Sequence record: MN850578.1
Source: Escherichia phage nomo
DNA: 64,000 nucleotides
Reading direction: 5' to 3' (one strand)
Below the pieces are notes generated by a model. That model saw only the letters and a program-made list of their open reading frames with translations. It had not been told where the DNA came from and did no database searches. Every line of letters begins with the position of its first letter. The first letter of the stretch is position 1. This document shows positions 7,734 to 23,500 of this stretch, piece after piece. The translations under genes were made by a program, and so were the position numbers.

Positions 7734-8181
7734 TACTGTAGAGGGGGATTTAATCTCCCTTTTTAAGAGCGGTGCTGGTCACCTGATCCACGGTTGTAAC
7801 TGCTTCCACACAATGGGCAAGGGTATAGCAAAACAGATTGCCCGTGAGTTTCCTCAAGCACTGTCAGCCGACAAAGAGACTAGATACGGTTGCCTAAGTA
7901 AACTGGGTGCGTTCTCCCGATGGGAGCACTTATCTCCGATAGGTATTGTCTACGGAATCAATCTATATACCCAGTTCTACCCAGGACCTAATGCTGAGTA
8001 TTTCTCAATCCTGAAAGGCTTTGAGCTAGTCAATGAAGTATTCAGCGGATCGACTTTACCATTCTACATCCCTAAGATCGGGTGCGGCATAGGCGGTTTG
8101 AAGTGGGAACACGTAGAGGACGTTATTAACCTTGCCACTTTCGACATAGATATTGTCGTGGTGGAGTACAAAAAGTGTTGA
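7723..8181 (+). CDS. macro-domain protein (ADP-ribose binding / processing); start codon uncertain (GTG 7723, or ATG 7642 with 92-nt overlap)
   Basis: Translation contains GHLIHGCNCFHTMGKGIAKQI, matching the conserved macro-domain core; RBS gaagaggag precedes GTG. Confidence 0.6.
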   Translation: MIIDTVEGDLISLFKSGAGHLIHGCNCFHTMGKGIAKQIAREFPQALSADKETRYGCLSKLGAFSRWEHLSPIGIVYGINLYTQFYPGPNAEYFSILKGFELVNEVFSGSTLPFYIPKIGCGIGGLKWEHVEDVINLATFDIDIVVVEYKKC

Positions 8182-10008: not shown

Positions 10009-10039
10009 TACTTGAAAATTCCTGGCATATCAAGTATAA

Positions 10040-10500
10040 GGGGGATTTCTAAAATGGATTTCCTCCTTTTGATATTTCACCGGGCTGGATATTTTAAAAT
10101 TCTTAGAAAATCAGAAAATGGATCGAAAACTAAAATGGATTTTTCAGAGTAGGCGCGACAAGCTGAATAACTCATCCTATCGTTTGCACCATATTCCAGG
10201 CCACCATTATAGATTTCCCACACATGCTAACCTCCCTCTACTAGAACTTCCTCCACTTACCCTTGACCTTCTATGGTAACAATCTAACCGCTATCTTGAA
10301 GTTGCGGTGCAGCTTTCCAGGTACTCGATCTACTTTTCATTTCAGGGCTTGGATTTTCTGAAAATTTTTCTCGATAAATTTCTCAGTACTCGATCTGTTT
10401 TTCGTCTTCTGAATCGGATTTTCTGGAAATCGTTCCGGCTCTCAACCTGAAATTTTTGGGGACGAAATCGATTTTTCGTTTTCAGAAATGGATTTTTAAA
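10040..10500. repeat. iteron-like direct repeat region (AAATGGATTT x4; ~50-bp units GTACTCGATCT...GGATTTTCTGRAAAT x2-3)
   Basis: Direct repeats read at 10051, 10117, 10133, 10487 and tandem units 10317-10367 / 10382-10432; no ORF. Confidence 0.6.
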
Positions 10501-10610
10501 ATTTCTATATGGGAATATTTTAGTGGATACTATTTTATAGTAAATTGTTACGGAGGGTAATTAGCGTGCTAATTAAATTTATTAAATGCGAGGAGTTCTC
10601 ATTTAGAATC

Positions 10611-10629
10611 TTGAATGATAATCATTCTC
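10611..10629 (+). promoter_or_regulatory. Fur-box-like operator 1
   Basis: ttgaatgataatcattctc: 15 of 16 core positions match Fur consensus AATGATAATCATTATC. Confidence 0.55.
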
Positions 10630-10642
10630 GTTTGCAGAATAA

Positions 10643-10682
10643 CGGGCAGGCCCGGTGATTGTCTCCCGGCCCCTGTTGCCCC
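10643..10682 (+). repeat. conserved GC-rich element copy 1 (GGCAGGCCYGGTGATTGTCTCCC...CCTGTTGCCC)
   Basis: Near-identical copy in reverse orientation at 20262-20300 and diverged copy at 10787-10810. Confidence 0.5.
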
Positions 10683-10746
10683 GGCTTGTTATTATAGTAT
10701 CACACAGGACAAAGAAAGCAAGGATTTTTTTTTGCATAAATTTTTA

Positions 10747-10765
10747 AATGATAATGATAACCGTT
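10747..10765 (+). promoter_or_regulatory. Fur-box-like operator 2
   Basis: aatgataatgataaccgtt: 11 of 12 match to GATAATGATAAT half of Fur consensus. Confidence 0.5.
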
Positions 10766-11024
10766 CTCATTTTATGCAGCGCTCATCCCTGGTGGTTGTC
10801 TCCCCCGTCACCGGTGCCTGCCGTCCTTTCGATAGGTATATTGTGCCACCTGTCGGGGCCGCTGTCAACACTTTTCAAAAAATTTTTCTAACCTGATGCG
10901 CTAACCGCTGCAACCTGGCGGGGCCAGCCTGGCAGGACCTAACTGACCAGGTGGGAGAGGGTGAAATCTTGCAAACCTGGTAGGCCCATGCTGTAGGGTA
11001 AACAATTGAAGAGGAGGTACAAAA

Positions 11025-11150
11025 ATGAAAGGTAATGCTACTCACCTGGGAAATGTAGTGATTAATGATACAGAAGCGCGGGAACATAAAGAAGAGTACG
11101 AAAAAATGGTGGTTAACCTGGCGGGGGGCGGCAGGTGGATTCTATCATAA
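11025..11150 (+). CDS. hypothetical micro-protein (41 aa)
   Basis: Strong RBS gaggagg 6 nt upstream of ATG; below ORF-track size cutoff. Confidence 0.3.
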   Translation: MKGNATHLGNVVINDTEAREHKEEYEKMVVNLAGGGRWILS

Positions 11151-11247
11151 AAATAATTTAAAATAATCGTTGACAACAAGGTTAATCATGGTATTATTAC
11201 CCTACAAGGTGAACAACACCGCACTAACCAGTAAAGAGGATAAATTT

Positions 11248-11445
11248 ATGAACGCATACGGGATCAAAGTACGTCGCAACACTCGCCAGGTGGTCACCGA
11301 TCAAATGGTTTGCCAGGTGGACGTAACCATCAACAACGGGCAAGGCCTTTATAAATTCCGTCGCGGTCAGAGCTATACCCGGCAACAGCTTAATCGTTGC
11401 GCCCTGACAAAAGGACAGATCAACCACTGGTTTAATAAAAAATAA
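11248..11445 (+). CDS. hypothetical protein (65 aa)
   Basis: Promoter ttgaca at 11171; RBS aagagga upstream of ATG 11248. Confidence 0.45.
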   Translation: MNAYGIKVRRNTRQVVTDQMVCQVDVTINNGQGLYKFRRGQSYTRQQLNRCALTKGQINHWFNKK

Positions 11446-11509
11446 GTATTGACATATAGTCCGACACCAAATACACTAAAAGCACAAAAGACACTAAGAG
11501 GATAAAATC

Positions 11510-11908
11510 ATGAAAACCACTACCTTTAATTTTGATAATGCGGACTTTTCTTTTTCTGATGTCAAGAACTACCGCCGTGATCGTGGATTTTACAAGGCTT
11601 ATAATCTGGTGGGCCTGGACGATGACAATAATTTGCACGAAGTAGCTGAGATCCGGTATTATGCCGCCGCCAGCGGGAACACTCACTACTGCGTGTTTTG
11701 GATTCACGACAACAAGAACAATAAGTACGGTTATACTGGCGGCAAGGCGAGCGGTCACGGTTACGATAAAGCTAACGCAGCACTTGAGAGCGCATTAAAT
11801 GCTATGGGGATCACTGCCGACGGCTGGATCTACGAAGAAGAGTTTTTGTCGGCACTTGCTGACCACCTGGGCTATAAAAAACACATTGTAACATGCGCCC
11901 ACGAATAA
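11510..11908 (+). CDS. hypothetical protein (132 aa)
   Basis: Promoter ttgaca at 11450; RBS taagagga. Confidence 0.5.
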   Translation: MKTTTFNFDNADFSFSDVKNYRRDRGFYKAYNLVGLDDDNNLHEVAEIRYYAAASGNTHYCVFWIHDNKNNKYGYTGGKASGHGYDKANAALESALNAMGITADGWIYEEEFLSALADHLGYKKHIVTCAHE

Positions 11909-11990
11909 AAATCATTGACACGCTGCAAAATTTAAGTAAACTAGACACAAAAGGCGGGAATGTTTCCCGCCAGCACAAAGGAAAAAGATC

Positions 11991-12386
11991 ATGAATAAGA
12001 ACGTACGCCGCATCATGAACGAACTGGCAAACGATGAAAAAATTATTGATATGCATTTGGTCAACATTTGCCGCCGTTGTGTAACATATAACAACCGCGC
12101 CGCAAAAGCGTGTGAGATGAACGCAAAAGGCACCTTAAAGCCCTTTCAGGTGGTTGTAAAATCTATAACTAGCGCAGCAGGCCAGGCGCAGGACCACAAC
12201 AACGAGAGCGCTAATATTGATCCGTCTTACGTAATGAAACGGATCCGGACTTGCAAGAATAAAGAGCAGGTATATAACGTCATAGATTGGCTGGACTCCC
12301 TGGGCGATGTGGTTTACAATAGGTTTTCTGCAGCTATCGAGATCCAGCTTGACAGATTGGACGGGAAAGTACTAAAAACTTATTGA
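11991..12386 (+). CDS. hypothetical protein (131 aa)
   Basis: Promoter ttgaca 11915; 5' stem-loop ggcgggaatgtttcccgcc; RBS aaaggaaaaag. Confidence 0.5.
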   Translation: MNKNVRRIMNELANDEKIIDMHLVNICRRCVTYNNRAAKACEMNAKGTLKPFQVVVKSITSAAGQAQDHNNESANIDPSYVMKRIRTCKNKEQVYNVIDWLDSLGDVVYNRFSAAIEIQLDRLDGKVLKTY

Positions 12387-12387
12387 G

Positions 12388-12434
12388 TTTATTTTTAGAT
12401 GGCCTTGACACCAGGGCCATCAATAAAGTAAACT
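12388..12434 (+). promoter_or_regulatory. repeated ~47-bp promoter/palindrome element, copy 1
   Basis: tttatttttagatggccTTGACAccagggccatcaataaagtaaac; inverted repeat gatggcc/ggccatc flanks -35. Confidence 0.5.
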
Positions 12435-12466
12435 AACCACAGTTGAGCGGAAAAGGAGGCTTAAAG

Positions 12467-12586
12467 ATGAGCACTACACGCCAGCACACAAAGGTAACCA
12501 TCATCGTTTGCATCATTGGGTACATCCTGGCGCAAATGTTGATGGGTAGCGCCAACGGTGTCGCAAAATTTTTCTTAAACTTTTAA
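12467..12586 (+). CDS. small hydrophobic peptide (39 aa, one predicted TM helix)
   Basis: RBS aaaaggagg; translation MSTTRQHTKVTIIVCIIGYILAQMLMGSANGVAKFFLNF. Confidence 0.3.
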   Translation: MSTTRQHTKVTIIVCIIGYILAQMLMGSANGVAKFFLNF

Positions 12587-12665
12587 TTGACAAGCTAACT
12601 TAAATCGATATAATAAGCACATAAACGGGAAAACTTCCCAGAACACACAAAAGGAGAAAAACACC

Positions 12666-13007
12666 ATGACTACTATGACCGCCTCAGAAAAAGCTATGCA
12701 GATCGCTGAACTGAAAAAACAGATCGCAGACCTTGAGAATAAGATCGATAACTTTGAAATCGACGAGGACAAGTACGACGAAAACTATGATGAATGGTTA
12801 GACGAGATCTACGGAGAAATTATGATCGGAAACATTTCTTTTCTTCCGTCGCGTATCCTCAAGGAGCTAGATCCTATCGCTTACCGCTGCGGATTTAGCG
12901 ACTACATCGACAGCCTGGATATTGAGGACGATGAAGAATACCAGGAATTACAGACAGAGTTAGAAGAAGCAAAAGAAGAGCTTGCGGAGCTGGAAGAAAA
13001 CGAGTAA
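12666..13007 (+). CDS. hypothetical acidic protein (113 aa)
   Basis: Promoter ttgaca 12587 with tataat; RBS aaaggag; highly acidic, coiled-coil-like. Confidence 0.5.
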   Translation: MTTMTASEKAMQIAELKKQIADLENKIDNFEIDEDKYDENYDEWLDEIYGEIMIGNISFLPSRILKELDPIAYRCGFSDYIDSLDIEDDEEYQELQTELEEAKEELAELEENE

Positions 13008-13009
13008 GC

Positions 13010-13054
13010 TTATTTTTAGATGGCCTTGACACCAGGGCCATCAATAAAGTAAAC
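13010..13054 (+). promoter_or_regulatory. repeated ~47-bp promoter/palindrome element, copy 2
   Basis: Identical to 12388-12434 over about 45 nt. Confidence 0.5.
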
Positions 13055-13096
13055 TTTATACTGTTAACACTGAACTAATGCATAGGAGTTAAAACC

Positions 13097-13342
13097 ATGG
13101 CAGCACTAATCACCAAATATTATGCCCCTACCAACACCAAAAGCGCCCGTATCATGGTAAAAGGCTTCGGACGTAAAAAGGTGTACACCTGGGATTATGC
13201 CTTAGACACGGAAGACAACTACACCAACGCAATGACCGATTTTATTAATGAACTAAATAAGCAGATCTTGACAAGTTATAAAGTGACTGATATTGCTTAT
13301 ATAGGTGAAGGCGGGATCTGTTTTGTAGGCATTGTGAAATAG
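13097..13342 (+). CDS. hypothetical protein (81 aa)
   Basis: ORF downstream of repeated promoter element; RBS ataggag. Confidence 0.5.
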   Translation: MAALITKYYAPTNTKSARIMVKGFGRKKVYTWDYALDTEDNYTNAMTDFINELNKQILTSYKVTDIAYIGEGGICFVGIVK

Positions 13343-13416
13343 TTATTTTTTCGGTGGTCCTGGCTGCAGGGCCATCTATAAAGATAATTTATCAACACCA
13401 TGAAAGGAGAAAGTAC

Positions 13417-13770
13417 ATGATCAGCGGGGCTAGTTTTATTATTGGCGCTATTGCTACGGCTTTAATTGTAAACAAGATCCAATCTAAAAACGAAAAAGAT
13501 AGCAACGCGCTCACAGAATACCCATTTTGGGTATTCAACGACAACGAAGACTACATAATCAAGTACAAAGATGAGAGAGGCGACCAGGTAACACCGCGAC
13601 CGATCCCAGCTTACAAGATGCAGGAAACACTATACCGCCTAAAGGCCGGAGGCGCAAAGATCGTAGACTTTTGGGGATATGATTGCAAGGATCAGGAGGT
13701 CATAAAACGTCGTATCCGGGCGATTCAGGCAAATATTGAAATTAGTAAAGGGGAAATTTATGAAAATTAA
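13417..13770 (+). CDS. hypothetical membrane-anchored protein (117 aa)
   Basis: RBS aaaggag upstream of ATG 13417; N-terminal hydrophobic helix. Confidence 0.45.
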   Translation: MISGASFIIGAIATALIVNKIQSKNEKDSNALTEYPFWVFNDNEDYIIKYKDERGDQVTPRPIPAYKMQETLYRLKAGGAKIVDFWGYDCKDQEVIKRRIRAIQANIEISKGEIYEN

Positions 13771-13957
13771 TTTCGAAAAAATTGTAAAGCGCCCCCACGA
13801 TTCCGAAGAGCTGCCGGAACGCCGCCAGCGTAACAATAAACTGAATAAACCGAAAAGGTTCGGGAAGATCTGGAGGAATCACTATGATCGCAAATTACCG
13901 GGCCTGCTTTTGGAACGTGAACGACAGGCGGAACGATACCGCCACAAAGGCAAATAA
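13760..13957 (+). CDS. hypothetical basic protein (65 aa)
   Basis: RBS aaagggga; Arg/Lys-rich translation. Confidence 0.35.
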   Translation: MKINFEKIVKRPHDSEELPERRQRNNKLNKPKRFGKIWRNHYDRKLPGLLLERERQAERYRHKGK

Positions 13958-13963
13958 CAACCA

Positions 13964-13994
13964 ACGCCCCGCCATTGTGCGGGGCTTTTTATTT
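13964..13994 (+). terminator. rho-independent terminator
   Basis: Hairpin gccccgccattgtgcggggc followed by tttttattt. Confidence 0.6.
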
Positions 13995-14127
13995 CTATCC
14001 TACGAATAGCGCCCCTGGTTGGCACCACAAACGCCACAAAAGCCCCTACCTATGCAATCCCCTTTCTTAGCCTGAAAACATCACCCAGGACCGTTTTATG
14101 GTGTTAAAAATATCTTTTATTTAAAGC

Positions 14128-14156
14128 TTGACACCTTGGAATCGCCTGGATATACT
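14128..14156 (+). promoter_or_regulatory. sigma70-type promoter (TTGACA-17-TATACT)
   Basis: ttgaca 14128-14133, tatact 14151-14156, upstream of ORF 14192. Confidence 0.55.
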
Positions 14157-14191
14157 AACCACATCAAAGCAAGAAGAAAGGAGTAAACGCC

Positions 14192-14452
14192 ATGCGTAAA
14201 TTAAAAAATTTTGATAAAGTCGATGTTGTCCTGAATAATTTTTACTACTGCAATAATAAGGCCGTTTGGTGGCGTGATAGTTCCACCGATAAAGTTAAAG
14301 CGCGCTTTCTCCAGGGGCACTGGCAAGGCCGCCCAGTGATTAAGATCCGGGGGCAATTGGTAGCGTTTAAAAATTGCCGCCGTGTTGATGACGTTGAAGA
14401 GATTCTAAACATTTTACGCCACAATAATTTAAAAAATAGTGTTGACAAGTAA
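14192..14452 (+). CDS. hypothetical protein (86 aa)
   Basis: RBS aaaggag upstream. Confidence 0.5.
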   Translation: MRKLKNFDKVDVVLNNFYYCNNKAVWWRDSSTDKVKARFLQGHWQGRPVIKIRGQLVAFKNCRRVDDVEEILNILRHNNLKNSVDK

Positions 14453-14526
14453 GCCTCAATAAGTATACTTAAACACACAGGCGGGAAAACTTCCCGCCAC
14501 TAACAAAGAAAATAGGAGAAAATATC

Positions 14527-15150
14527 ATGACCACCGTTAACATTACCGCAGGTTACAATTTATCTTTCGACGTGCTGACCGACGAACAAAAAGAAAAAGC
14601 CGTTGAAATGGTCCGCGAAAGAGAAGAACACAGCGGGGATAACTTTTTTGCAGAAAGTGTAATTGAATACTATAAAGAATATGTTTTTCCAGAGTATGGC
14701 CTTGAAGATACCGAAGTACATTGGTCAGGCTTTTGGTGCCAGGGTGACGGCGCGTCAATCAGTGCTGAAAACGTGGATTTAGAAAAATTTTTGCGTAAAG
14801 TAAAGGCCCTGACCAAGTTCCGATCAATTCGTCACTTGTTCGGCACAATGCACGATGGCGAGTTATCAGCCAGTGTTGAGCGTGATCCATATAGCCGCTA
14901 TAGTCACGAAAACACTGTAAGCGGATACATTGATACCACCTGGCTAGATCTGACCGCCAAACAAGAAAACAAAGTGGAAGACTTGGAAGAGCTGATCACC
15001 GAGACGGTACGGGAGCTATCCCGCAAGGTTTACGTAGACCTGGAGGAGGCCTATCTTGAACAGTTTACTACCGAAAACCTGATCGGCCTTATTGAGGCCA
15101 ATGATTGGCGGTTTGATGTGGATGAATATGGCGAGATGACTTTTTCATAA
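14527..15150 (+). CDS. hypothetical protein (207 aa)
   Basis: Promoter ttgaca 14442; 5' stem-loop ggcgggaaaacttcccgcc; RBS aataggag. Confidence 0.5.
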   Translation: MTTVNITAGYNLSFDVLTDEQKEKAVEMVREREEHSGDNFFAESVIEYYKEYVFPEYGLEDTEVHWSGFWCQGDGASISAENVDLEKFLRKVKALTKFRSIRHLFGTMHDGELSASVERDPYSRYSHENTVSGYIDTTWLDLTAKQENKVEDLEELITETVRELSRKVYVDLEEAYLEQFTTENLIGLIEANDWRFDVDEYGEMTFS

Positions 15151-15239
15151 ATAAAGTGTTGCAATAACCTAAAAACCTGCTATATTAAAACTCAAGGGGG
15201 CAAGACGTTTGCCCCACACAAAACAAAGAGGAAAACATT

Positions 15240-15620
15240 ATGAAAAACACTACCAAGGCTATTGACACCGTTATGTTTAACCTGGTTACATTCCGTGAAG
15301 ATATGAAAGATCTTCCACGTGAAACAGTGTGCGATCACATTGAAAACTATCGCAAACTAATCAAAGAGTTGCCCCTAAAACGTGACCAGTATGCGGCTAA
15401 CGCTATGCTCAACGCCATGATCAAAAAGATGATCCAGTGTGATTTAACCCTGGCCTATGACTATGCGGGTGGTCGTTTTGCAGTATACAATCAGCCCGTG
15501 CCCGGTATGGGCACCACCGAAGAATTGCACGCGCTCAATCTAAAACAAGACGTATGGGATAACATGCCCCGCGTGGTGGTGTGGGCAGAAAGCGGAAAGA
15601 TTTACGGCGATAATTTTTAA
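15240..15620 (+). CDS. hypothetical protein (126 aa)
   Basis: 5' stem-loop ggggcaagacgtttgcccc; RBS aaagagga. Confidence 0.5.
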   Translation: MKNTTKAIDTVMFNLVTFREDMKDLPRETVCDHIENYRKLIKELPLKRDQYAANAMLNAMIKKMIQCDLTLAYDYAGGRFAVYNQPVPGMGTTEELHALNLKQDVWDNMPRVVVWAESGKIYGDNF

Positions 15621-15684
15621 TCAGGTAACAGGCGGCATATTTGCCGCCTTATTGTTAAACAGAACTGCAAAAGAGGTACATAGA

Positions 15685-16056
15685 ATGGAATTTATTATTT
15701 TGGCTGTAGTAGTTGCCTTGTTCAACGCCTGGATCGCTGGCAAGATGGGTAGATCCGCCTTTTTATGGTTTATTATATCTATTTTCCTGGGGGTGGTTGC
15801 AACTATTGTACTTGTTATCCTTGCAATTGTTGACAAGGGGAATAATAGAAAGGGTAAAGTATTTTCAGACCTGTACGACGCTCAAACGTTTGTCAACGCC
15901 TATTATAGTGATCTTCCAGTCTCCCTACGCTGCAGCCTGGCACAACAAGTTTTCGATGAGGCTAAAACCAGAGATCAAGCCCATGAGATATGTTTAACTG
16001 AGGCGGATCGCCTATTTGAGAGGAATAGAAAATATGTGGGCCAACCGTTTAAATAA
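15685..16056 (+). CDS. hypothetical membrane protein (123 aa, two predicted TM helices)
   Basis: RBS aaagagg upstream of ATG 15685; hydrophobic helices. Confidence 0.45.
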   Translation: MEFIILAVVVALFNAWIAGKMGRSAFLWFIISIFLGVVATIVLVILAIVDKGNNRKGKVFSDLYDAQTFVNAYYSDLPVSLRCSLAQQVFDEAKTRDQAHEICLTEADRLFERNRKYVGQPFK

Positions 16057-16541
16057 TGCCACGTTAATTAATCCCTTTAGTGAAGATTTGAAGCCAGCCG
16101 CCTGGCGTGATGGATTCAATAACGAACGCTTTATTTTCAAGCCTGATCTTGAGGAATTTTATAACAATGGATCGAACAACGACAGAGATAATTTTTCTTG
16201 TGGTGTGCGTAGTGATGGTACTCCTGGGGGCCATTGTAAACCACGTCGCTACTAACAGGGGGAAAGGGGGAGACGATGACACCCAAGGATAAGCCCCGCA
16301 CCGATAAGGCGCGCCGTGTTATGGTATGGCTTGAGATCATCGCCCTTGAAATATTGTTAGGGGTAGGGATGTACTTTATCGCTGTAAGTAACTAAGAACG
16401 GCCCCCCGATCATGGGGGCCTATCTTTAAAAAAAAAAAAAATTCTTCCGGGGTGTTGCAATCCGGTCCGGAATGTGGATAATAACAATCAACGGGGAGAC
16501 ACTCCCCACCGCATAGACAAAGTTCCAAAAGGAGAAACAAA

Positions 16542-16742
16542 ATGAGCAACAATATCCGCGTTATTAACTTCAAAAAAGAAGAAAAAATTGCCGTGCTGAT
16601 TGACGGTCAAGAAATCTTTAAAGGTGATTATGAAGATCATCAAACGGCGATTAGTATCACTCGCGTGATTGGTTACCATAATTTTTACCCTCAAGGCGCT
16701 GAGGCAGCAGTAAAACGAATTAAAGAGATTGTAGGCCTGTAA
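16542..16742 (+). CDS. hypothetical protein (66 aa)
   Basis: Promoter ttgcaa-17-taataa; RBS aaaaggag. Confidence 0.5.
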   Translation: MSNNIRVINFKKEEKIAVLIDGQEIFKGDYEDHQTAISITRVIGYHNFYPQGAEAAVKRIKEIVGL

Positions 16743-16743
16743 A

Positions 16744-16790
16744 ATTTATTTTTAGATGGCCTTGACTCCAGGGCCATCAATAAAGTAAAT
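16744..16790 (+). promoter_or_regulatory. repeated ~47-bp promoter/palindrome element, copy 3
   Basis: tttatttttagatggccttgactccagggccatcaataaagtaaat; one mismatch in -35. Confidence 0.5.
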
Positions 16791-16833
16791 TTAAACCCTG
16801 TTAAAATAATCAGTGCAAAAAGGAGTAATGATC

Positions 16834-17133
16834 ATGTTTATCCAGGCTAATAATCTTTATTTCTTTGATGGTCAGATCGTAGACGGCGTGGAGGTGGAAA
16901 TCACCGGGTGCCCTGGCGGTCAGGTTATGACTTTTCGGAATAATGCCTTTGATGATTCTCATATCGTTATGAGAATGGAAGTTAGTAAGCTGGATGACAA
17001 GAAAACACTTATCGACTATTCCGTCAAAGATCATCCAGACTACCACATGATCTATGGTGATTTGTGCATTGTTGACCGTGACAAGGTGGGCGGCATTGTG
17101 ATCGCTATTGTGAACGATGTTTTCTCAAACTAA
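16834..17133 (+). CDS. hypothetical protein (99 aa)
   Basis: RBS aaaaaggag about 8 nt upstream of ATG 16834. Confidence 0.45.
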   Translation: MFIQANNLYFFDGQIVDGVEVEITGCPGGQVMTFRNNAFDDSHIVMRMEVSKLDDKKTLIDYSVKDHPDYHMIYGDLCIVDRDKVGGIVIAIVNDVFSN

Positions 17134-17150
17134 TTTCAGCAGGTGATTTT

Positions 17151-17501
17151 ATGAAAGTAAAACTATATTACCTTAATGAGCTTAACCCCCTTGCCCAGGT
17201 CCGCGCCCTGGCTAATACCTTGATTTGTGAGAAATCTGTATATTGTGTTGAGCTTAACGCCATGCGTGAACGTCTCAAAGGTGGTTACTTTGACATCCAT
17301 GCTGCAATCAACGGCCTGAATATAGAATTTATCCGCTTACGTAACAGCCGCCAGAATCTGGCAAGAATGGAACAAGATCCGGCCCACCTTCGTAAGCTGG
17401 TTATTGAAAATCATCTGATGTTTAATGCCGATGGTGATTATTACCATTTTCACCGTAAACGCTGGTACCGTGGCGGCAATACAGGCAAGAATGCAAAATA
17501 A
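17151..17501 (+). CDS. hypothetical protein (116 aa)
   Basis: ORF with RBS caggtg upstream; hairpins follow the stop. Confidence 0.5.
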   Translation: MKVKLYYLNELNPLAQVRALANTLICEKSVYCVELNAMRERLKGGYFDIHAAINGLNIEFIRLRNSRQNLARMEQDPAHLRKLVIENHLMFNADGDYYHFHRKRWYRGGNTGKNAK

Positions 17502-17702
17502 GGCCCCAGGCAGGGCCTGCAGCGATATAATCACATAAAGGCTATGCGGTTGCATGGCCTTTATTATTTTAGCGTTACAGCGGCCCCAAGGCGCTTAAAA
17601 AATTTTTAAAGAAGTACTTGCATCAAGTCCTACAATATGGATAATAGGACGTGTCAGGGGGGCGGCCCCCAATCATTAACCGGATAGATAGGAGTTAAAA
17701 TC

Positions 17703-17987
17703 ATGGCTATTGTCACCGTTGGCGATGTAGTGGAAATGGAAGCAAAATACTTAAAAGCGGGTATGCATATCCTACGGAATGATCAAGAATTGTTATTAAC
17801 GATGGTAGACTATAATCCCGGCCAGGATTATCCAAGCATCGACTACTTTTTTGAGTATGTTGATGAAGAATTGAAAGAGGATGAGGCTTATCAGGGTGAA
17901 TTCTGCAATTTCTTTTGCCCTGATGAGGTTGTAAAAGTTATCTATCAACCTGGAGTACCTTTCCCGCTGCACGCTATCAATAAATAA
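17703..17987 (+). CDS. hypothetical protein (94 aa)
   Basis: Promoter ttgcat 17615; 5' hairpin gggggcggccccc; RBS taggagt. Confidence 0.5.
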   Translation: MAIVTVGDVVEMEAKYLKAGMHILRNDQELLLTMVDYNPGQDYPSIDYFFEYVDEELKEDEAYQGEFCNFFCPDEVVKVIYQPGVPFPLHAINK

Positions 17988-18041
17988 ACCTGGCGGGGCC
18001 GAAAAGGCCCCAATTATGAAAATAAAGAGAGGTAAATCATC

Positions 18042-18275
18042 ATGATGGAACAAATTAAACGCGCTGAGGCTATTAATGGCAATGTGATCTATTTTGTCAG
18101 CAAAAACGAAAAAGGCGTACCATATGCGGCGGTAATAGTACAACCTGACGGCGATTATTGGTTTACTGTATACGGATCTTATTCTTTCGGGCGTCCGGTT
18201 CATGATAGAATTTTGAAAGTAGCAAATCCGACCGGGAAAAATATCACAGCAGAAAAATTTTTTGAAAATAGTTGA
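18042..18275 (+). CDS. hypothetical protein (77 aa)
   Basis: 5' hairpin ggggccgaaaaggcccc; RBS agagagg. Confidence 0.5.
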   Translation: MMEQIKRAEAINGNVIYFVSKNEKGVPYAAVIVQPDGDYWFTVYGSYSFGRPVHDRILKVANPTGKNITAEKFFENS

Positions 18276-18351
18276 CATGACCATATAAGACTGTAATATA
18301 TAAATCAAAGGGGGGCAACAAGCCCCACCAACCACAAAGAGGATAAAAATC

Positions 18352-18531
18352 ATGGCTATTATTGCAAAGACTGAGATCGTAGGCTTAGATTCTATTCTCC
18401 TCGCATATGAGGAAGCTATAGAAATGTATGTGGTTTCCTATGGTGAATATATCCGTGAATATAAATCTATTGATCTAGCTTTTGAATGTTATATTCGCCA
18501 GGTCAATAAAGCATATGATGATTATCGTTAA
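18352..18531 (+). CDS. hypothetical protein (59 aa)
   Basis: Promoter ttgaca 18272; 5' hairpin; RBS aaagagga; below ORF-track cutoff. Confidence 0.4.
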   Translation: MAIIAKTEIVGLDSILLAYEEAIEMYVVSYGEYIREYKSIDLAFECYIRQVNKAYDDYR

Positions 18532-18613
18532 AATAGTTTGACAACAGTCAACAATCTGGTAAAGTGTACTACATAGCGCGGGAATACTTCCCGCCATTAA
18601 TGAGGGTAATTTA

Positions 18614-18751
18614 ATGAAAACTTTCAACGCAACAGCCTCGACAATTGGTTATATTATTACAGTACAAGCCGTGGATCTGGTAGCAGCAGCAAACAAGATT
18701 AAAAAGATGATTCCGCCAGGTAGTGAATTTTCCGTTTGGGAAGTAAAATAA
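18614..18751 (+). CDS. hypothetical micro-protein (45 aa)
   Basis: Promoter ttgaca 18538; 5' hairpin gcgggaatacttcccgc; RBS tgagggt. Confidence 0.3.
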   Translation: MKTFNATASTIGYIITVQAVDLVAAANKIKKMIPPGSEFSVWEVK

Positions 18752-18940
18752 ATCTTGACAATAATTTATTACTTGATAGACTGTATTTCGTAGTGCGGGG
18801 CAATAAGGCAACGCCCATTAATGAGGGTAGAATCATGTTAGAGAAAATTTTCACGGTTGTAGTAGTTGGCCTGGCATTATCGGTTGGATGGGTTGCAACT
18901 ATGGCTAACATGATCCTATCTTCCCACGGTATCGGTTAAA

Positions 18941-19165
18941 GTGAATCAAATGATCACGAATAAAACAGGTAAAACGGAATTCTTGCGCGGCTTGCAGGTC
19001 GGCAAGCCTGAGATCTGGCATTGCACTAAAACACCACGTGACGAAATGAAAGACTTCACCGCCACGCTGCAACGGGTAAAGATATCCATCACGCAGAAAA
19101 AGGCCTTGATAGTGGTGGAAGGTGAGATCCCTCAAACCGTTGTTATAGTTGAGCGTACAGCATAG
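18941..19165 (+). CDS. hypothetical protein (74 aa); start may be ATG 18950
   Basis: ORF in array; start codon ambiguous. Confidence 0.4.
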   Translation: MNQMITNKTGKTEFLRGLQVGKPEIWHCTKTPRDEMKDFTATLQRVKISITQKKALIVVEGEIPQTVVIVERTA

Positions 19166-19256
19166 TTTAATTTATACCGATACCCGAAAATTAACCAACA
19201 AAGCATAAACAGGCGGTTACCGCCGCCTTAAACGTAGCAGAAAGAGGATAGACACA

Positions 19257-19541
19257 ATGAAAAAGATGATCGCAGTGGTTGCCCTGGTTGTTGGACTTAA
19301 TGCGCCTGTAATGGCTAAAGAGCTGGCAAAAGAGGTTAATCTAACGGATATCCATGCCGTCAATCAAATCGGGGTTACTTATCGCTTATGCCTTGCCGCT
19401 AAAACTTTTAATGACGGTACAACAGAGTACTACGGATTCGAGGGTATCCGGTGCGGTGAGCTTGCTCGCGACCTTAAGGAAGATCCAGACCTGGAGGATC
19501 TACCCATAACCGTGAACGGTAAAGCTTACTTTAACCGTTAA
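19257..19541 (+). CDS. hypothetical secreted/periplasmic protein (94 aa) with N-terminal signal peptide
   Basis: RBS aagagga; translation starts MKKMIAVVALVVGLNAPVMA (signal-peptide-like, AxA cleavage motif). Confidence 0.5.
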   Translation: MKKMIAVVALVVGLNAPVMAKELAKEVNLTDIHAVNQIGVTYRLCLAAKTFNDGTTEYYGFEGIRCGELARDLKEDPDLEDLPITVNGKAYFNR

Positions 19542-19690
19542 CCGTGAAAAAGATAATCATTACCTTGGGGATTGTGGCGGGATCGCTGGCGCTCTTTCCC
19601 CTTATGGTTAGATATGTGCTGATCAGTATTGTCCTGGTGGTCAGTGATCTACTAGAAACGGTTGGCACCTTGTTTTAAAGAGCGATAAAA

Positions 19691-19882
19691 ATGAATGTTG
19701 AACAAGTTAGAAAGGTATTGGCGGTACTGCGTTATCATAATCATTGCAAGGTGAAGAATGATCCTGATTATCTTGATTCATCCCTTGAAGAGGATACACT
19801 ACAAGCCATAAGCAACATGCAAGAATTGCTTAAGCGTATGACAGAGAAAAACCGACCGGACTACATAGGGGGTAAAATATGA
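19691..19882 (+). CDS. hypothetical protein (63 aa)
   Basis: ORF in array. Confidence 0.4.
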   Translation: MNVEQVRKVLAVLRYHNHCKVKNDPDYLDSSLEEDTLQAISNMQELLKRMTEKNRPDYIGGKI

Positions 19883-20190
19883 TCGCTATTACGCCAACCG
19901 TTTTAGATTGGTATCGGCAACGCATAGCGCCTCCGCTGGCTATCTTCAAAGATGCGGAAGCAAAACAACGCCGGATCTCAATACATGAGATCATCAACCT
20001 TAACGCTGGAGGCACACCATACCGCCCAGGACCTGGCCGTGAGATGGACAATACGTTAGCGATCCTGAAGATACGCCGTAAACGGTCCTCCCTTACGCTG
20101 GACTCATTACACACAATGCAGCCTCCGTTCCAGGTGACCGGGAAACGGATCGCCAGGTCCTGGACAAAGGCCAATGATCGGACCGTATAA
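19879..20190 (+). CDS. hypothetical protein (103 aa)
   Basis: ATGA overlap with upstream ORF. Confidence 0.4.
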   Translation: MIAITPTVLDWYRQRIAPPLAIFKDAEAKQRRISIHEIINLNAGGTPYRPGPGREMDNTLAILKIRRKRSSLTLDSLHTMQPPFQVTGKRIARSWTKANDRTV

Positions 20191-20261
20191 ATAAAAGTGT
20201 TTTGGTACTGATTTTGGGGTTGACTTGTTCGGCCCCTTTTGCTATTCTTATTAAACGGGCG

Positions 20262-20300
20262 GCACTTGGGAACAGGGGGAGACAATCACCAGGCCTGCCT
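20262..20300 (-). repeat. conserved GC-rich element copy (reverse orientation) matching 10643-10682
   Basis: Reverse complement reads ggcaggcctggtgattgtctccccctgttccc. Confidence 0.5.
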
Positions 20301-20407
20301 GTCATATAAGAACTATAAAAACCGTTGACATCTGCCATGGGGTGAGGTAACATTTATCTTGAAGGGGCAAAAGTGCCCACACAACAACCAGAAGAGAGGA
20401 AAACATT

Positions 20408-20680
20408 ATGTCAAGCTGGATTAATCAAGAAGTCGAATCACGTTTTAATGCTATTTGGGATCTCATCGAAAAAGAGGACGGAACATCAAGCCCTTATCTC
20501 AATAATCTTGAATTCCATTTCGTGGAAGCGATGAACGCAGAACATGATCACGAAGGTGGTGCGGATGAGTTCGCTAAAGGGTATGGCTTCAACAATGCCA
20601 ACGAAATGATCGAGGCGGTTGTACTCCAGGCTGAGGAAGATTATCAATTAAAAACGCTTGAATTCTGCCGCCGTAAGTAA
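20408..20680 (+). CDS. hypothetical acidic protein (90 aa)
   Basis: Promoter ttgaca 20325 - 17 - taacat; 5' hairpin gggcaaaagtgccc; RBS agagagga. Confidence 0.5.
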   Translation: MSSWINQEVESRFNAIWDLIEKEDGTSSPYLNNLEFHFVEAMNAEHDHEGGADEFAKGYGFNNANEMIEAVVLQAEEDYQLKTLEFCRRK

Positions 20681-20742
20681 TAAGATAATGACACGGGCCA
20701 AAAGGCCCACTAAACAAAAACCACATAAAGAGGAAAAACATC

Positions 20743-21006
20743 ATGAAACGTCTTGACCAGCTCAAACTAGTTCAATATATGGCTTATCGTGTTCTGGAAG
20801 TCCAGAAAGGTAGCAAAAAAGAGGTTTGCGAGAAAGCTTATAAGATCTTTACCCGCAAAAAAGATGACTGGATGCTACGCCAGACCAAAAAGGCTGACAT
20901 CTTGGGGTACCTGGAAGAAGAGATCCGACTTGAAGAACAAGAAGAGATCCGCCGTAGTGAGGCAGATTATCAGGCAGCTTGGGAAAACTGGATGAGCAAC
21001 AAATAA
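20743..21006 (+). CDS. hypothetical protein (87 aa)
   Basis: 5' hairpin gggccaaaaggccc; RBS aaagagga. Confidence 0.5.
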   Translation: MKRLDQLKLVQYMAYRVLEVQKGSKKEVCEKAYKIFTRKKDDWMLRQTKKADILGYLEEEIRLEEQEEIRRSEADYQAAWENWMSNK

Positions 21007-21025
21007 TACAACAAGATGAACGGTC

Positions 21026-21050
21026 AGGGGCTTAAAGCCCCTTTCTTTTT
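21026..21050 (+). terminator. rho-independent terminator ending the + strand gene block
   Basis: Hairpin aggggcttaaagcccct followed by ttcttttt. Confidence 0.65.
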
Positions 21051-21059
21051 GTCTTCTCT

Positions 21060-23500
21060 TTTCCTACCATAAACGGCCCTACCTGGCAAGTGGAATAATT
21101 GACGAGCCATCAATCCCACACACTGTACAAATATACATGGAAAATAACTATTGCATAATTTTTCATTGTGTGGTAGCAAGGCCATTTTTACACGTTTTTC
21201 CTTCCAAAATTGCACGTAATGCAGCATTTGCACAAAATTTAACCTGATGCATATCTTCAATAGCTTGTCAACAACTAAAAATCTTTATAAGTCATACACT
21301 TACATAACTACAAAAACGTTTTCTACGTGAAAAATCGAGTATAACTATAGCCGCCAGATCTCAGAATTTACGTACGCTCGCCATTCTATAGCCTGCTAAG
21401 CATTTATTCCAACCATAGAATAACTGAATAGTCAATACCTGCATAAAATAATTATTCGTGTAAACTGCATAACATAAATCGGCCCAGGTGTCAACATTTT
21501 TCGTAAACAGTCTGGAATTGTCACGTTAGGTTACCATAAGTAGAGAAATCTTTAGTCGTCTAATGTTTACTGTACGTTACTATATTAACTGAAATCATTA
21601 GATGACTAATAGAAAGATAAGAAATAATTAACAATACAATTATTTTATCTGTAACAATAAGGCAACTATGCAAACGAATGGCATGGCGCGACGGAGTCGC
21701 GACATAATATAAAAGCAGTAACCATCACCCCCGTGATAGTTTGTCTGCAAACTATTAATCAGATCATAGTTGCCTTGTATTTAGTTAATCATGACATAAC
21801 AAGCAAGGCAACTATAGATCTGCTAATAGTTGCCCTGCTTTTATATTATGTCATGCTAATTATAATCAGTGCGATTATTGTCATGTATAATTATTGTCAT
21901 GCAAACGAATGGCATGGCTGATTATCGGTGTGTAAACAGTCAATCATGTAAATGGTTAGCATGTGAACAATCAGGAATGTAAACAATCCAGTGTGTAAAC
22001 TAATAGGTGTGTAAAAGTGTCATGTTGTGTCAGTTAGGTCACATTATGTCAGACAAGTTTTTCTCCTCTTTGTCAAGTGCTGCATGAAAAATTTACAAGC
22101 TTGTATGGTAGCATTTTTGCGGCCCTGTTTACATTCAGGAGTGTATGTATAATCCTTGTTGTGTGGGCGTTTAGACGTCTGGACGGTCAGAAGTCTGCAG
22201 GTCAATATCTAATCTATTGGCTGCTAACTATATCCCCCACAAATAATAAGAAATATAATTGTTATGTGCGTAAACAGTAACCCATGTTATCAATCCCTGT
22301 ATGTATCGCCAGTTGTGCGCATAATGGGTATTATGTTAAATTGCCCGTAATGATAACTATTCTCACAATGATAGGTATTCTCATTCACCCCCACAAGATA
22401 GGTTGCAAATGTTGTGCCACTGTGTGAACGGCCTCACCTATTAATTTGCCTCACTGCCTCGATATTTGAGAATTGTTATAAGAATGAGAAGTATTCCCAT
22501 TCCGTCCGCCTGGCAGCACTCCAGTCGCTACGGCTCCTGACAGGGCAGCACTCCTGTAGGTCAGGTCAAAATCGTGGTAGAACTGGACCTGTTCGGATAT
22601 TTCTGGCTGACTCTTCAGGTCTGTGTGGGAAAAGCCAACCCCTCCGGCGGGGCAGGGGATATCTGCAGGAAAATTGCAGGTCAATTAAAAATTTACGTGG
22701 TGTATGAAGCGCTCTTCAGGCAAGGCATGTATTAGAGGATGAAACCCTCTTCAGGCAATGATATTTGTGGGTGGGATATTTGCTGGAAAGCCAGATATGA
22801 CGGGACTCCCGGCGGGGCAGGGGTAGTACAGACAGGGAAAATATGAGGATGTAATTGGGGAAATTGATCAGACAGGTAGAGTATGGAATATGTTACAGGT
22901 ATGTTAAATATGGAGGTTGAATATCTGTAGGATTTGTGTGTAAAATCAAAGACTTAAGGGGTGTTGTGGTATTTTCTATAAATAATTCAAGTTTAATAGG
23001 CAATATTTGTCTCTATCCGCTTTGTGTGGTAAACAGATTCAGATGAAATTGGTTTACAAGTGTATACATAATATACAAATTAAAGATACAAGAAACCCCC
23101 CTCCCCCCTCGGCTACCATTCACCTTTTCCTCTGACTGGTACTTAAACACTTATTCAGACTCTTCAGGTTATCACCCATATATCATATGGCAGTGACTGG
23201 TGTCCTCCGGCCCCTCTTTCGTCACCCGTCCGCTTCGCCATGCTAATGCCATAGCCAATGGTTCGGTTGTTCACCCTGTTCACTCAGGTGTATCTCCATA
23301 CCCCTTCAAACCGAAGAGAACAGAAAACCCGAATTACTCGGTAAAAGAAAAGAGAAGAACTTAATTTTATCAGGATAGGCAAGAATGTCAAGGCATGACT
23401 GCTCACTAAACAAGCAAACAGTCATGTGTGGAAGGTAAGTGATTGTGGTGGTGGGAAATTTAGTTGAAAGATGTGTTATAGGTGCGCTTCCAGCACTTTA
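21060..23500. other. 2.5-kb non-coding convergence region with several repeat families
   Basis: No convincing ORF; repeats gcaaacgaatggcatggc (x2), tgtgtaaac-like array 21928-22016, ctcttcagg...ccggcggggcagggg units 22606-22840. Confidence 0.55.

Follow-up and report, generated by a model that had tools for sequence, protein, structure and literature searches.

Promoter-early stem-loops (PeSLs) of T4-like phages, known from RB49/phi1, PST/T4 and nt-1/KVP40 (Arbiol et al. 2010, PMC2839356; Comeau et al. 2014, PMC4122927), are the closest described counterparts of the regulatory cassettes presented here, which recur through a block of small genes in Escherichia phage nomo (MN850578.1; the block occupies positions 11025-21042 of an analysed stretch of 64,000 nucleotides, hereafter the window). 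A PeSL joins an AT-rich UP region, a near-consensus σ70 promoter, a stem-loop of the form G(n)-loop-C(n), a Shine-Dalgarno (SD) sequence and a start codon. PeSLs are concentrated among small ORFans, with insertion and deletion (indel) of cassettes between close relatives, excision between two copies and degraded 'half' copies, and the window resembles them in all these respects. The PeSL family is also characterized by demonstrated promoter/attenuator activity and circular excision products; of the defining features that can be assessed from sequence, most are present in the window cassettes. The literature searched deals with PeSLs in T4-like phages only and otherwise just mentions them in passing.

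The same gene block has been annotated in phage rV5 (Kropinski et al. 2013, PMC3606486), where it corresponds to genes ~164-197, the distal end of a proposed transcription unit '10-1-238-164' that converges with genes 82-163; in the window, a sign change of the GC skew at ~23-24 kb reflects this convergence. Table S4 of that paper lists eight of the promoters (P168, P174, P185, P186, P192, P194, P195 and P195A) and four of the terminators (t164, t177, t181 and t184) treated below. The promoter-rich small-gene block itself is, then, already published, and the present analysis extends it by about ten promoters; that paper makes no mention of hairpins after the promoter, of the 48-bp repeat, of cassette indels or of sharing with jumbo phages. 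In the Rak2-like jumbo phage CBB, clusters of RpoD-type promoters with UP elements precede short hypothetical genes that were read as early host-takeover genes, and the hairpin layout is not described there (PMC5259590). At the mRNA level, the 5' stabilisers of ompA and papA (Emory, Bouvet, Bricker and Belasco, as cited in PMC3997798) are similar to the window cassettes in the features conveyed by that citing review, namely a stable hairpin near the 5' end, an unstructured leader and an SD; unlike them, the present 5' ends are predicted from promoter geometry, and the hairpins, with 5-8 bp, are shorter and are found at many genes next to one another. The literature searched yielded no transcriptome, transcription start site map, timing data or RNA half-lives for any rV5-like phage (Vequintavirus).

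Against this background, we regard the locus as probably a hyperplastic block of accessory genes, organized in σ70 units and built from PeSL-like cassettes with a 5' stem-loop, whose recurrence would provide portable homology for gene exchange.

A megablast search with positions 10980-21060 matched 289 phage records, the best matches being nimi (98.1%, 100% coverage) and HdK5 (98.5%), two Escherichia phages of the genus Vequintavirus, i.e., rV5-like myoviruses of ~137 kb; the source phage is, judging from these matches, an rV5-like coliphage of the same genus. For this region the nimi and HdK5 records list 25-29 consecutive 'hypothetical proteins', all encoded by the same strand. Their annotations, mapped onto the window and complemented with one unannotated open reading frame (ORF), give 30 plus-strand genes (G01-G30) at 11025-21006, encoding 34-207 amino acids (aa; median 83.5). 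Nearly all of these ORFs are called as genes in close relatives, and the 30 products all match PHROG families (E 1e-14 to 1e-88), each of unknown function. An earlier, sequence-only reading of this DNA had proposed about 30 very small genes, and it was right about their number and slightly off in their size range, given as 40-207 aa. The coding density of the block is 78%, most intergenic regions measure 60-100 nt, and no tRNAs were found in the window.

Promoters, translation signals and transcription units

Among the intergenic regions one order recurs: a stop codon, an AT-rich stretch, the -35 and the -10, a short hairpin rich in GC, a leader rich in A, the SD and the ATG. This PeSL-like grammar had been missed by the sequence-only reading. 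Plus-strand σ70 sites scoring at least 10/12 number 13 and minus-strand sites 0, against an expectation of 1.9 +/- 1.4 (maximum 7) from 200 dinucleotide shuffles; all but one of the 13 lie directly upstream of a gene start, the exception being the site at 14211, inside G10. The 20 nt upstream of the -35 are 76% AT, compared with 57% for the block. In an alignment with ten relatives, variable columns amount to 2/96 in the -35 hexamers, 11/96 in the -10 hexamers, 66/266 in the spacers, 16/160 in the SD zone and 105/449 in the rest of the leader. Taken together, these figures indicate that the σ70-type promoters of the block are real and strand-specific.

Good SD sequences had also been claimed ahead of the genes, and the computed anti-SD duplex bears this out: it reaches -4.4 kcal/mol or lower in 27 of the 30 genes and -6 kcal/mol or lower in 22 of them, against 10% of control ATGs (n=165, other ATGs of the block). 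The terminators said to follow several genes are likewise present, as six hairpins with T tracts (at 13966, 15630, 16400, 17535, 20216 and 21026) that have 5-7 T in the next 8 nt.

Fifteen genes possess their own promoter of at least 9/12, and three more one of 8/12. For the other 12 (G01, G09, G13-G15, G18, G20 and G24-G28), no site of at least 8/12 with plausible geometry was found, and most of them overlap the upstream neighbour or follow it by 2-20 nt. Because these 12 genes lack a promoter of their own, the block resolves into ~18 short units of 1-4 genes, some of which end in one of the 6 terminators; the idea that nearly every ORF has its own promoter stands for 15-18 of the 30 genes and falls for the remaining 12.

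Leader hairpins

A stem-loop accompanies 16 of 19 promoter elements. In five it surrounds the -35 or is placed between the -35 and -10 hexamers, and in 11 cassettes (G04, G06, G11, G12, G16, G19, G21, G22, G23, G29 and G30) it follows the -10. These 11 leader hairpins start 8-12 nt after the -10 (10.8 +/- 1.3), and their distance to the ATG is 18-34 nt (26.2 +/- 5.9); since the former offset is nearly constant and the latter variable, the hairpin is placed with reference to the promoter and not to the ribosome-binding site. Herein lies a difference from PeSLs, whose stem-loops are mostly located between the -35 and -10 hexamers or over the latter (their positions being described as 'various'), whereas 11 of the 16 described here come after the -10, inside the predicted mRNA. 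That PeSL hosts are T4-like and the present phage belongs to the Vequintavirinae is a limit of scope rather than of mechanism.

The leader hairpins fold with z scores of -2.7 to -5.2 relative to shuffled controls, and the promoter-hairpin layout is found at 6 of the 13 strong block promoters but at only 1 of 48 strong sites elsewhere in the window (Fisher p 2e-4). In the 8 nt after the hairpin there are on average 1.1 T, against 5-7 for the six terminators, and the leaders that follow consist of 54% A and 13% T, the block mean for T being 25%.

Every leader hairpin is kept in the ten relatives despite sequence drift, while the loops are the most variable class of columns (18/36). In three cases the loop or the whole hairpin has been reverse-complemented: that of G11 in APECc02 (14480-14498, AAC<->GTT), that of G12 in YN3 (15197-15215, CAAGACGTTTG<->CAAACGTCTTG) and, in HdK5 and FFH2, the loop of the terminator at ~17.55 kb (17535-17564, GGTT<->AACC). 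Exact flips of this kind are a signature of template switching at palindromes.

Several known classes of element were considered for these hairpins and set aside. As intrinsic terminators, neither the leader hairpins nor those at 17995 and 19211 qualify, with only 0-3 T in the next 8 nt. As for lambda-type nut sites (boxA/boxB), the loops differ among cassettes (TGT, AAC, GACGT, ACA, AACAA, AAAA, among others) and tolerate inversion, and no shared boxA-like motif was seen; that loop sequences are not conserved among relatives also argues against a sequence-specific protein site such as boxB. RNase III sites of the T7 early region type comprise ~20 bp of double-stranded RNA, and the stems here only 5-10 bp. 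Rfam 15 gave no credible match, the sole one at E <= 1 scoring 36.8 bits against a gathering score of 94.4.

Two homopolymer runs were also noticed. The G-run of the G19 hairpin (17655-17672) is variable among relatives, reaching ~17 G in V18, and the A14 run in the UP region of the G16 promoter (16425-16443) also differs in length; either could tune expression via slippage.

The 48-bp repeat and the composite element

Among the hairpin elements, only the 48-bp repeat is a true sequence family, the other copies being alike in design. It reads TTATTTTTA-GATGGCCTTGACACCAGGGCCATC-AATAAAG-TAAACT, is present in four copies (at 12387, 13008, 13343 and 16743) and forms a 10-bp stem around the -35 hexamer, with a folding free energy (dG) of -20.1 kcal/mol and z -5.5. 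These four copies and the composite at 20216-20248 make up the five elements whose -35 is inside a hairpin. Copy 3 has lost its TTGACA and kept all ten base pairs by means of wobble and compensatory changes, which recalls the 'half PeSLs' of Comeau et al. (PMC4122927). The repeat is almost confined to Vequintavirus, to which 119 of the 120 matching records belong, usually with 3 detectable copies each; the remaining match is a partial one in a 149-kb phage.

The composite combines a terminator and a promoter in one element, and the same design is found in HdK5 and in the jumbo phage 121Q. It would fire into ~75 nt in which, up to the following promoter at 20325, there is no convincing gene (20216-20325). 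A 29-aa ORF is annotated within this interval in EmilHeitz, and the ~75 nt could correspond to a tiny ORF or a small RNA.

Cassette shuffling in related genomes

The comparison of cassettes among related phages, which the sequence-only reading had suggested as a check, was carried out between the window and eleven related Vequintavirus loci, and it revealed whole-cassette indels between close relatives, together with one clean case of recombination between repeat copies. This is the case of ECP26, which is devoid of window positions 12435-12995, exactly G05 and G06, and keeps one chimeric 48-bp repeat, whose left flank is that of copy 1 and whose right flank is that of copy 2 (the BLAST segments overlap by 61 nt). 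The junction shows that ECP26 lost both genes via recombination between the two repeat copies, and the event reproduces the excision model drawn for PeSLs (PMC2839356).

Other indels are flanked by repeated regulatory sequence in a comparable manner. An extra cassette (promoter, hairpin, SD and 74-aa gene) with the repeated promoter core TAGTTTGACAAC at its flanks is found at 18530-18585 in nimi and EmilHeitz; APECc02, EmilHeitz and ev146 have an extra 72-aa gene at 20709-20736, flanked by repeated leader/SD; and in six relatives two copies of the terminator hairpin 21026-21043 enclose a gene of 139 aa that has a promoter of its own (rV5 P164). G28 is absent in seven relatives (HdK5, APECc02, V18, bov22_2, YN3, FFH2 and EmilHeitz), the right junction falling at the composite (20216-20236), in whose place HdK5 carries another composite built to the same design. 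Several relatives have other sequence in place of the segment 18581-18893. For the flanked indels other than that of ECP26, recombination at the repeated regulatory sequence is a plausible origin.

Sharing with jumbo phage 121Q and other lineages

G27 is 82-87% identical in nucleotides, over the exact ORF, to a gene of 121Q-like jumbo phages (Asteriusvirus, ~350 kb). A tblastn search with the 30 proteins against 50 kb of 121Q found six homologs (G02, G11, G12, G20, G21 and G27; 43-89% aa), all of them located in one 19-kb sub-block of spaced small genes and in an order unlike that of the window; the same search found no homologs in a 50-kb region of 121Q devoted to replication and structural genes. 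In that sub-block, 14 strong promoters are followed, 11-14 nt after the -10, by a GC hairpin (typically GGGGAGAATAGTTCTCCCC) and then by ACTAA...AGGA, a layout that appears at 0/24 sites on the other strand and 0/45 in the 50-kb control region. The composite is there as well, with its -35 in the loop, a T run and the -10. 121Q has in common with the window six proteins and the promoter-hairpin-leader grammar, and differs from it in its unrelated virion and replication lineage, its 350-kb genome and its more uniform hairpin family.

Individual cassette sequences are also common to Phapecoctavirus, Justusliebigvirus and Certrevirus relatives, the G23 cassette in particular to Phapecoctavirus and Justusliebigvirus phages, and proteins of the G11 family are widespread among jumbo phages of Escherichia, Klebsiella, Salmonella, Erwinia, Yersinia and Caulobacter. 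The likeness to the hyperplastic, shuffling regions of T4-type phages that had been suggested for this block is upheld by its PeSL composition, by the cassette indels and by the genes and grammar in common with an unrelated jumbo phage.

A broader reading, which we find possible but rather doubtful, is that one position-locked cassette format is in use across unrelated coliphages, serving both as armour of early mRNAs against RNase E/RppH decay, whether of the host or boosted by the phage, and as exchange homology for small takeover or anti-defence genes. Its members would be the Vequintavirinae with their phi92/phAPEC8-like relatives, the 121Q-like jumbo phages and, more loosely, the T4-like PeSLs, and the format would consist of UP element, σ70 promoter, hairpin ~4 nt into the transcript, AC-rich and U-poor leader, and SD. 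If this were true, it would amount to a pan-coliphage exchange standard for accessory genes. If the reading preferred for the block is right, PeSL-type modular shuffling would be general in large virulent coliphages, across families, instead of peculiar to T4-like phages; and the position-locked 5' hairpin would be a design rule for stable, insulated expression of short genes, useful to phage engineers. In newly sequenced genomes, early ORFan blocks and the limits of cassettes can be sought by means of the cassette grammar, which is a simple signature.

Proposed mechanism and alternative explanations

According to the reading that we prefer for the block, host σ70 RNA polymerase would read the units from the ~18 promoters without phage factors, as an early or pre-late class. 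Three observations agree with this timing: the late genes of rV5 carry a different, T4-late-like motif (PMC3606486), G09 belongs to the T7 early gp1.1 family, and the CBB region has been read as early. With a transcription start ~7 nt after the -10, the 11 leader hairpins would begin at ~+2 to +6 of the mRNA. A single-stranded 5' end is required by RppH as well as by the 5' sensor of RNase E, and this is the accepted explanation for the stabilisation of mRNAs such as ompA and papA by 5' stem-loops (review PMC3997798). By analogy, the 5'-terminal stem-loop may shield the short mRNAs from 5'-end-dependent decay (RppH, RNase E) and isolate each cassette from its neighbours. We hold this role as 5' mRNA stabiliser to be a strong candidate, stopping just short of calling it probable; the U-poor, A-rich and unstructured leader fits the logic of 5' protection. 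The -35-enclosing hairpins would form only in read-through transcripts coming from upstream, the sole transcripts on which the three promoterless hairpins could act too, and both groups might be attenuators or 3'-end protectors, as the PeSL authors proposed. The recurring regulatory sequences, finally, would act as portable homology for the insertion, deletion and swapping of cassettes, including exchange with unrelated coliphages.

Some observations weigh against parts of this picture. Seven block promoters were counted without any hairpin, and hairpins are found in the promoterless intergenic regions at 15630, 17995 and 19211; because these hairpins and repeat copy 3 exist, some role independent of the position at the 5' end must be assumed. 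Stem columns vary like the neutral leader (27/122 versus 105/449), so the formal support from covariation is weak and comes down to a few flips and compensations. With regard to exchange, G18 was precisely deleted via ATG/AATG microhomology in V18, bov22_2 and YN3, and rV5_ev146 lost 0.5 kb and 6.4 kb via 10-15 nt microhomologies, in neither case with participation of the cassettes; as rV5_ev146 does without these ~6.9 kb, most of the block is dispensable. Breakpoints fall in non-coding DNA in 9 of 14 cases, versus 22% of the block being non-coding (binomial p 8e-4), an excess that is in part expected from selection against broken genes. To these points is added the finding that the stem-loop of PeSL211/210 cut lacZ expression about as much as rrnB T1 (PeSL paper), which speaks for the first of the alternatives, namely that the hairpins are attenuators or terminators damping upstream read-through, each gene having its level set by its own promoter and no 5' protection being involved, which is how the PeSL authors see them.

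Attenuation would also account for the hairpins without promoter (those at 15630, 17995 and 19211, and that of the -35-less repeat copy 3), and the five -35-enclosing hairpins can act solely on upstream transcripts. However, the 11 leader hairpins come after the promoter of their own cassette, whose transcripts they would attenuate too; they have no U tract, with 1.1 T in 8 nt against the 5-7 of the terminators, and their position is fixed to the -10 and not to the upstream stop codon. As an explanation for the whole set, attenuation is in our judgement unlikely, if still worthy of attention. Clearly less is to be said for a purely DNA-level function, in which the hairpins would be palindromic hot spots of recombination or template switching, or promoter-tuning cruciforms, with no function as RNA. 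The three hairpins or loops flipped to their reverse complement in relatives and the variable G-run lengths would be in line with it, as would the PeSL crossovers mapped in or beside the stem-loop and the repeat hairpins that enclose the -35. It leaves unexplained, however, the constant 8-12 nt offset and the U-poor, A-rich leader in two unrelated lineages, and the ECP26 crossover needs the 48-bp homology alone, no palindrome; we therefore take it to be improbable.

The strict version of the promoter claim, in which every small gene is autonomous, finds backing in the 15-18 genes that do have a promoter and in the fact that a consensus scan could miss weak or non-consensus ones, but it has to contend with the 12 genes with no site of at least 8/12, nine of which overlap the upstream gene or follow it by at most 20 nt and leave no room for a promoter outside coding sequence, and it is quite improbable. 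Scarcely credible is, lastly, the termination by leader hairpins of antisense transcription entering from the converging downstream gene cluster: eight hairpins have T-rich minus-strand tails and were flagged as terminator-like (e.g., 11971, 14498, 15215 and 18326), and the block does converge with minus-strand genes at ~21-24 kb, but there is no strong minus-strand promoter inside the block, one terminator at its end would suffice, and in 121Q the stretch from the -10 to the hairpin is T-rich on the sense strand, so that the antisense tail is A-rich with the layout unchanged.

Features of the block

Table 1. Coordinates of genes, cassettes, hairpins and terminators in the small-gene block at 11025-21042; all features are on the plus strand.
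Feature	Position	Remarks
G01, 41 aa	11025-11150	phrog_21957; strong SD; own promoter not found
G02 cassette	11170-11247	TTGACA-16-TATTAT (11/12, TG-extended -10), leader, SD; without hairpin
G02, 65 aa, basic	11248-11445	phrog_7119; 121Q homolog (43% aa)
G03 cassette	11449-11509	TTGACA-17-TACACT (10/12) = rV5 P195; without hairpin
G03, 132 aa	11510-11908	phrog_7028; no PDB sequence match
G04 cassette	11915-11990	TTGACA-16-TAAACT = rV5 P194; A/C-rich leader, SD
G04 leader hairpin	11953-11971	10 nt after -10; dG -14.6, z -4.1
G04, 131 aa	11991-12386	phrog_13245; deleted in rV5_ev146
G05 cassette = 48-bp repeat copy 1	12387-12466	10-bp hairpin 12398-12421 around -35 TTGACA (12405), -10 TAAACT, SD
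G05, 39 aa, membrane micro-protein	12467-12586	phrog_16391; missing from ECP26
G06 cassette	12587-12665	TTGACA-16-TATAAT (12/12) = rV5 P192; hairpin 12627-12639, 12 nt after -10; A/C leader, SD
G06, 113 aa, very acidic (36 D+E, 9 K+R)	12666-13007	phrog_9294; missing from ECP26
G07 cassette = repeat copy 2	13008-13096	hairpin 13019-13042 around -35 (13026), -10 TAAACT, SD; dG -20.1, z -5.5
G07, 81 aa	13097-13342	phrog_3199
G08 cassette = degenerate repeat copy 3	13343-13416	10-bp hairpin 13353-13376; -35 lost (CTGGCT), -10 GATAAT (8/12)
G08, 117 aa, N-terminal transmembrane segment	13417-13770	phrog_12734
G09, 65 aa, basic	13760-13957	11-nt overlap with G08; phrog_8176; Pfam Phage_1_1
Intrinsic terminator ending G08-G09 unit	13966-13985	7 GC pairs, tail TTTTTATT
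G10 cassette	14128-14191	TTGACA-17-TATACT (11/12) = rV5 P186; without hairpin
G10, 86 aa	14192-14452	phrog_11241
G11 cassette	14442-14526	TTGACA-16-TATACT (11/12) = rV5 P185; -35 overlaps G10 end; leader, SD
G11 leader hairpin	14480-14498	10 nt after -10; z -5.2; in APECc02, loop flipped
G11, 207 aa, net charge ~-25	14527-15150	phrog_5162; family also in many jumbo phages
G12 cassette	15159-15239	TTGCAA-16-TATATT (9/12), leader, SD
G12 leader hairpin	15197-15215	10 nt after -10; entire hairpin flipped in YN3
G12, 126 aa	15240-15620	phrog_7352; 121Q homolog (68% aa)
Hairpin with weak T tail = rV5 t184, ahead of G13	15630-15649	no promoter after
G13, 123 aa, N-terminal transmembrane segments	15685-16056	phrog_13090; 'putative holin' in EmilHeitz
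G14, 73 aa	16034-16255	phrog_12060; 23-nt overlap with G13
G15, 39 aa, membrane micro-protein	16276-16395	phrog_13629
Terminator = rV5 t181	16400-16420	then A14 run, length variable among relatives
G16 cassette	16455-16541	TTGCAA-16-GATAAT (9/12); hairpin 16493-16507, 10 nt after -10; leader, SD
G16, 66 aa	16542-16742	phrog_12347
G17 cassette = repeat copy 4	16743-16833	hairpin 16755-16778 around -35 TTGACT (16762), -10 TAAATT, SD
G17, 99 aa	16834-17133	phrog_7366
G18, 116 aa	17151-17501	phrog_8549; 17 nt after G17, without own promoter; deleted in V18, bov22_2, YN3
Terminator = rV5 t177	17535-17564	loop = reverse complement in HdK5 and FFH2
G19 cassette	17618-17702	TTGCAT-16-GATAAT (8/12); G/C hairpin 17658-17670, 12 nt after -10; leader, SD
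G19, 94 aa, acidic	17703-17987	phrog_12610
Promoterless intercistronic hairpin GGGGCCGAAAAGGCCCC	17995-18011	without T tract
G20, 77 aa	18042-18275	phrog_9227; 121Q homolog (55% aa)
G21 cassette	18272-18351	TTGACA-16-TAATAT (10/12) = rV5 P174; hairpin 18312-18326, 12 nt after -10; leader, SD
G21, 59 aa	18352-18531	phrog_9374; 121Q homolog (73% aa)
G22 cassette	18538-18613	TTGACA-16-TAAAGT (10/12); hairpin 18578-18594, 12 nt after -10; SD
G22, 45 aa	18614-18751	phrog_29854; inside 18581-18893 segment replaced in several relatives
G23 cassette	18755-18834	TTGACA-16-TAGACT (10/12); imperfect hairpin 18795-18816, 12 nt after -10; SD
G23, 34 aa, membrane micro-protein	18835-18939	phrog_14631
G24, 71 aa	18950-19165	phrog_5988; 10 nt after G23
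Promoterless intercistronic hairpin	19211-19228	without T tract
G25, 94 aa, signal-peptide-like N-terminus (MKKMIAVVALVVGLNAPVMA/KE)	19257-19541	phrog_9845
G26, 44 aa, GTG start, membrane micro-protein	19544-19678	phrog_16005, E 9e-27
G27, 63 aa	19691-19882	phrog_9599; 89% aa, 82-87% nt identity to 121Q-like jumbo-phage gene
G28, 103 aa	19879-20190	phrog_13681; ATGA overlap with G27
Composite terminator/promoter	20216-20248	TTGACT inside hairpin, T run, then -10 TATTCT
G29 cassette	20325-20407	TTGACA-17-TAACAT (10/12) = rV5 P168; hairpin 20365-20378, 11 nt after -10; A/C leader, SD
G29, 90 aa, acidic	20408-20680	phrog_7287
G30 cassette	20658-20742	TTGAAT-17-TAAGAT (8/12), -35 inside G29 end; hairpin 20695-20708, 8 nt after -10; leader, SD
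G30, 87 aa	20743-21006	phrog_11701; no Pfam match
Terminator ending block = rV5 t164	21026-21042	hairpin with T tract

Gene products

A transmembrane-like or signal-like hydrophobic segment is present in seven products (G05, G08, G13, G15, G23, G25 and G26), the N-terminus of G25 being signal-peptide-like, in agreement with the membrane micro-proteins and the one signal-peptide protein that the initial inspection had noticed. G09 matches Pfam PF08200 Phage_1_1, the T7 gp1.1 family (E 1.2e-10, 42.1 bits against a cut-off of 21); as tblastn with G09 found only Vequintavirus, the link to T7 exists at the profile level only. The other 29 proteins have no Pfam match, and the ten that were run against NCBIfam have none there. 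For G11, a confident structure model was obtained (pLDDT 87), for which no credible structural neighbour or known fold match was found; the invariant residues of its family include G68, F69, Q72, G73, D74, G75 and A76. The names 'YeeU-like antitoxin' and 'acetyltransferase' given to G11 in databases are not supported, and neither is 'DNA translocase FtsK', applied to G30 in some records. G06 (net charge ~-27), G11, G19 and G29 are strongly acidic, which is compatible with DNA-mimic-type inhibitors and proves nothing. A role of the block proteins in host takeover or anti-defence is a reasonable prior, and the 30 proteins, six of them common with jumbo phages, constitute a defined, dispensable set for toxicity and anti-defence screens.

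Two gene calls are worth a comment. That of G01 is unstable, since a 1-nt indel alters the end of the ORF, whose product has 41 aa in the window as against 46 aa in nimi and 35 aa in HdK5 (11025-11166); it has the strongest SD of the block and no recognisable promoter. G26 (19544-19678) starts with GTG 2 nt after G25, lacks an SD and encodes a hydrophobic product of 44 aa; the ORF is unannotated in nimi and HdK5, annotated in EmilHeitz and matched by phrog_16005 (E 9e-27); it is probably a real, translationally coupled micro-protein.

Just upstream of the run of small genes, at ~7720-8181, a macro-domain (ADP-ribose-binding) protein is encoded according to the annotation of relatives, and a counter-defence or host-modification function is possible for this neighbour of the ORFan block.

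Flanking regions and database records

Some 20 database records of the MG0656xx series (C12, D1 and A147 among them) are labelled 'Campylobacter phage', with Campylobacter jejuni as host, and are 93-100% identical to E. coli rV5-like phages across the block; they are probably mislabelled or derived from contaminating coliphages.

Ahead of the block, the ~1 kb at 10009-11024 has no gene in nimi, and the ORFs annotated there in HdK5 look non-genic. A 57-nt element is present there in two copies spaced by 65 nt (10314-10370 and 10379-10435), along with several motifs of the form GGATTTTCTG/AAATGGATTT and, at 10868, a strong site resembling a minus-strand promoter. On the other side, the ~2.4 kb between the converging gene blocks (21060-23500) contain no credible ORF, the longest having 97 aa and a GTG start, and are rich in direct and inverted repeats. 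Of the 34 near-matches to the motif [GA]TGTAAAC[AT] in the window, 8 fall in 21185-22276, and a strong minus-strand promoter at 23391 is directed into the region, which is probably the 'non-coding' box of the rV5 map and might function as an origin, as a packaging site or as an array bound by a regulator.

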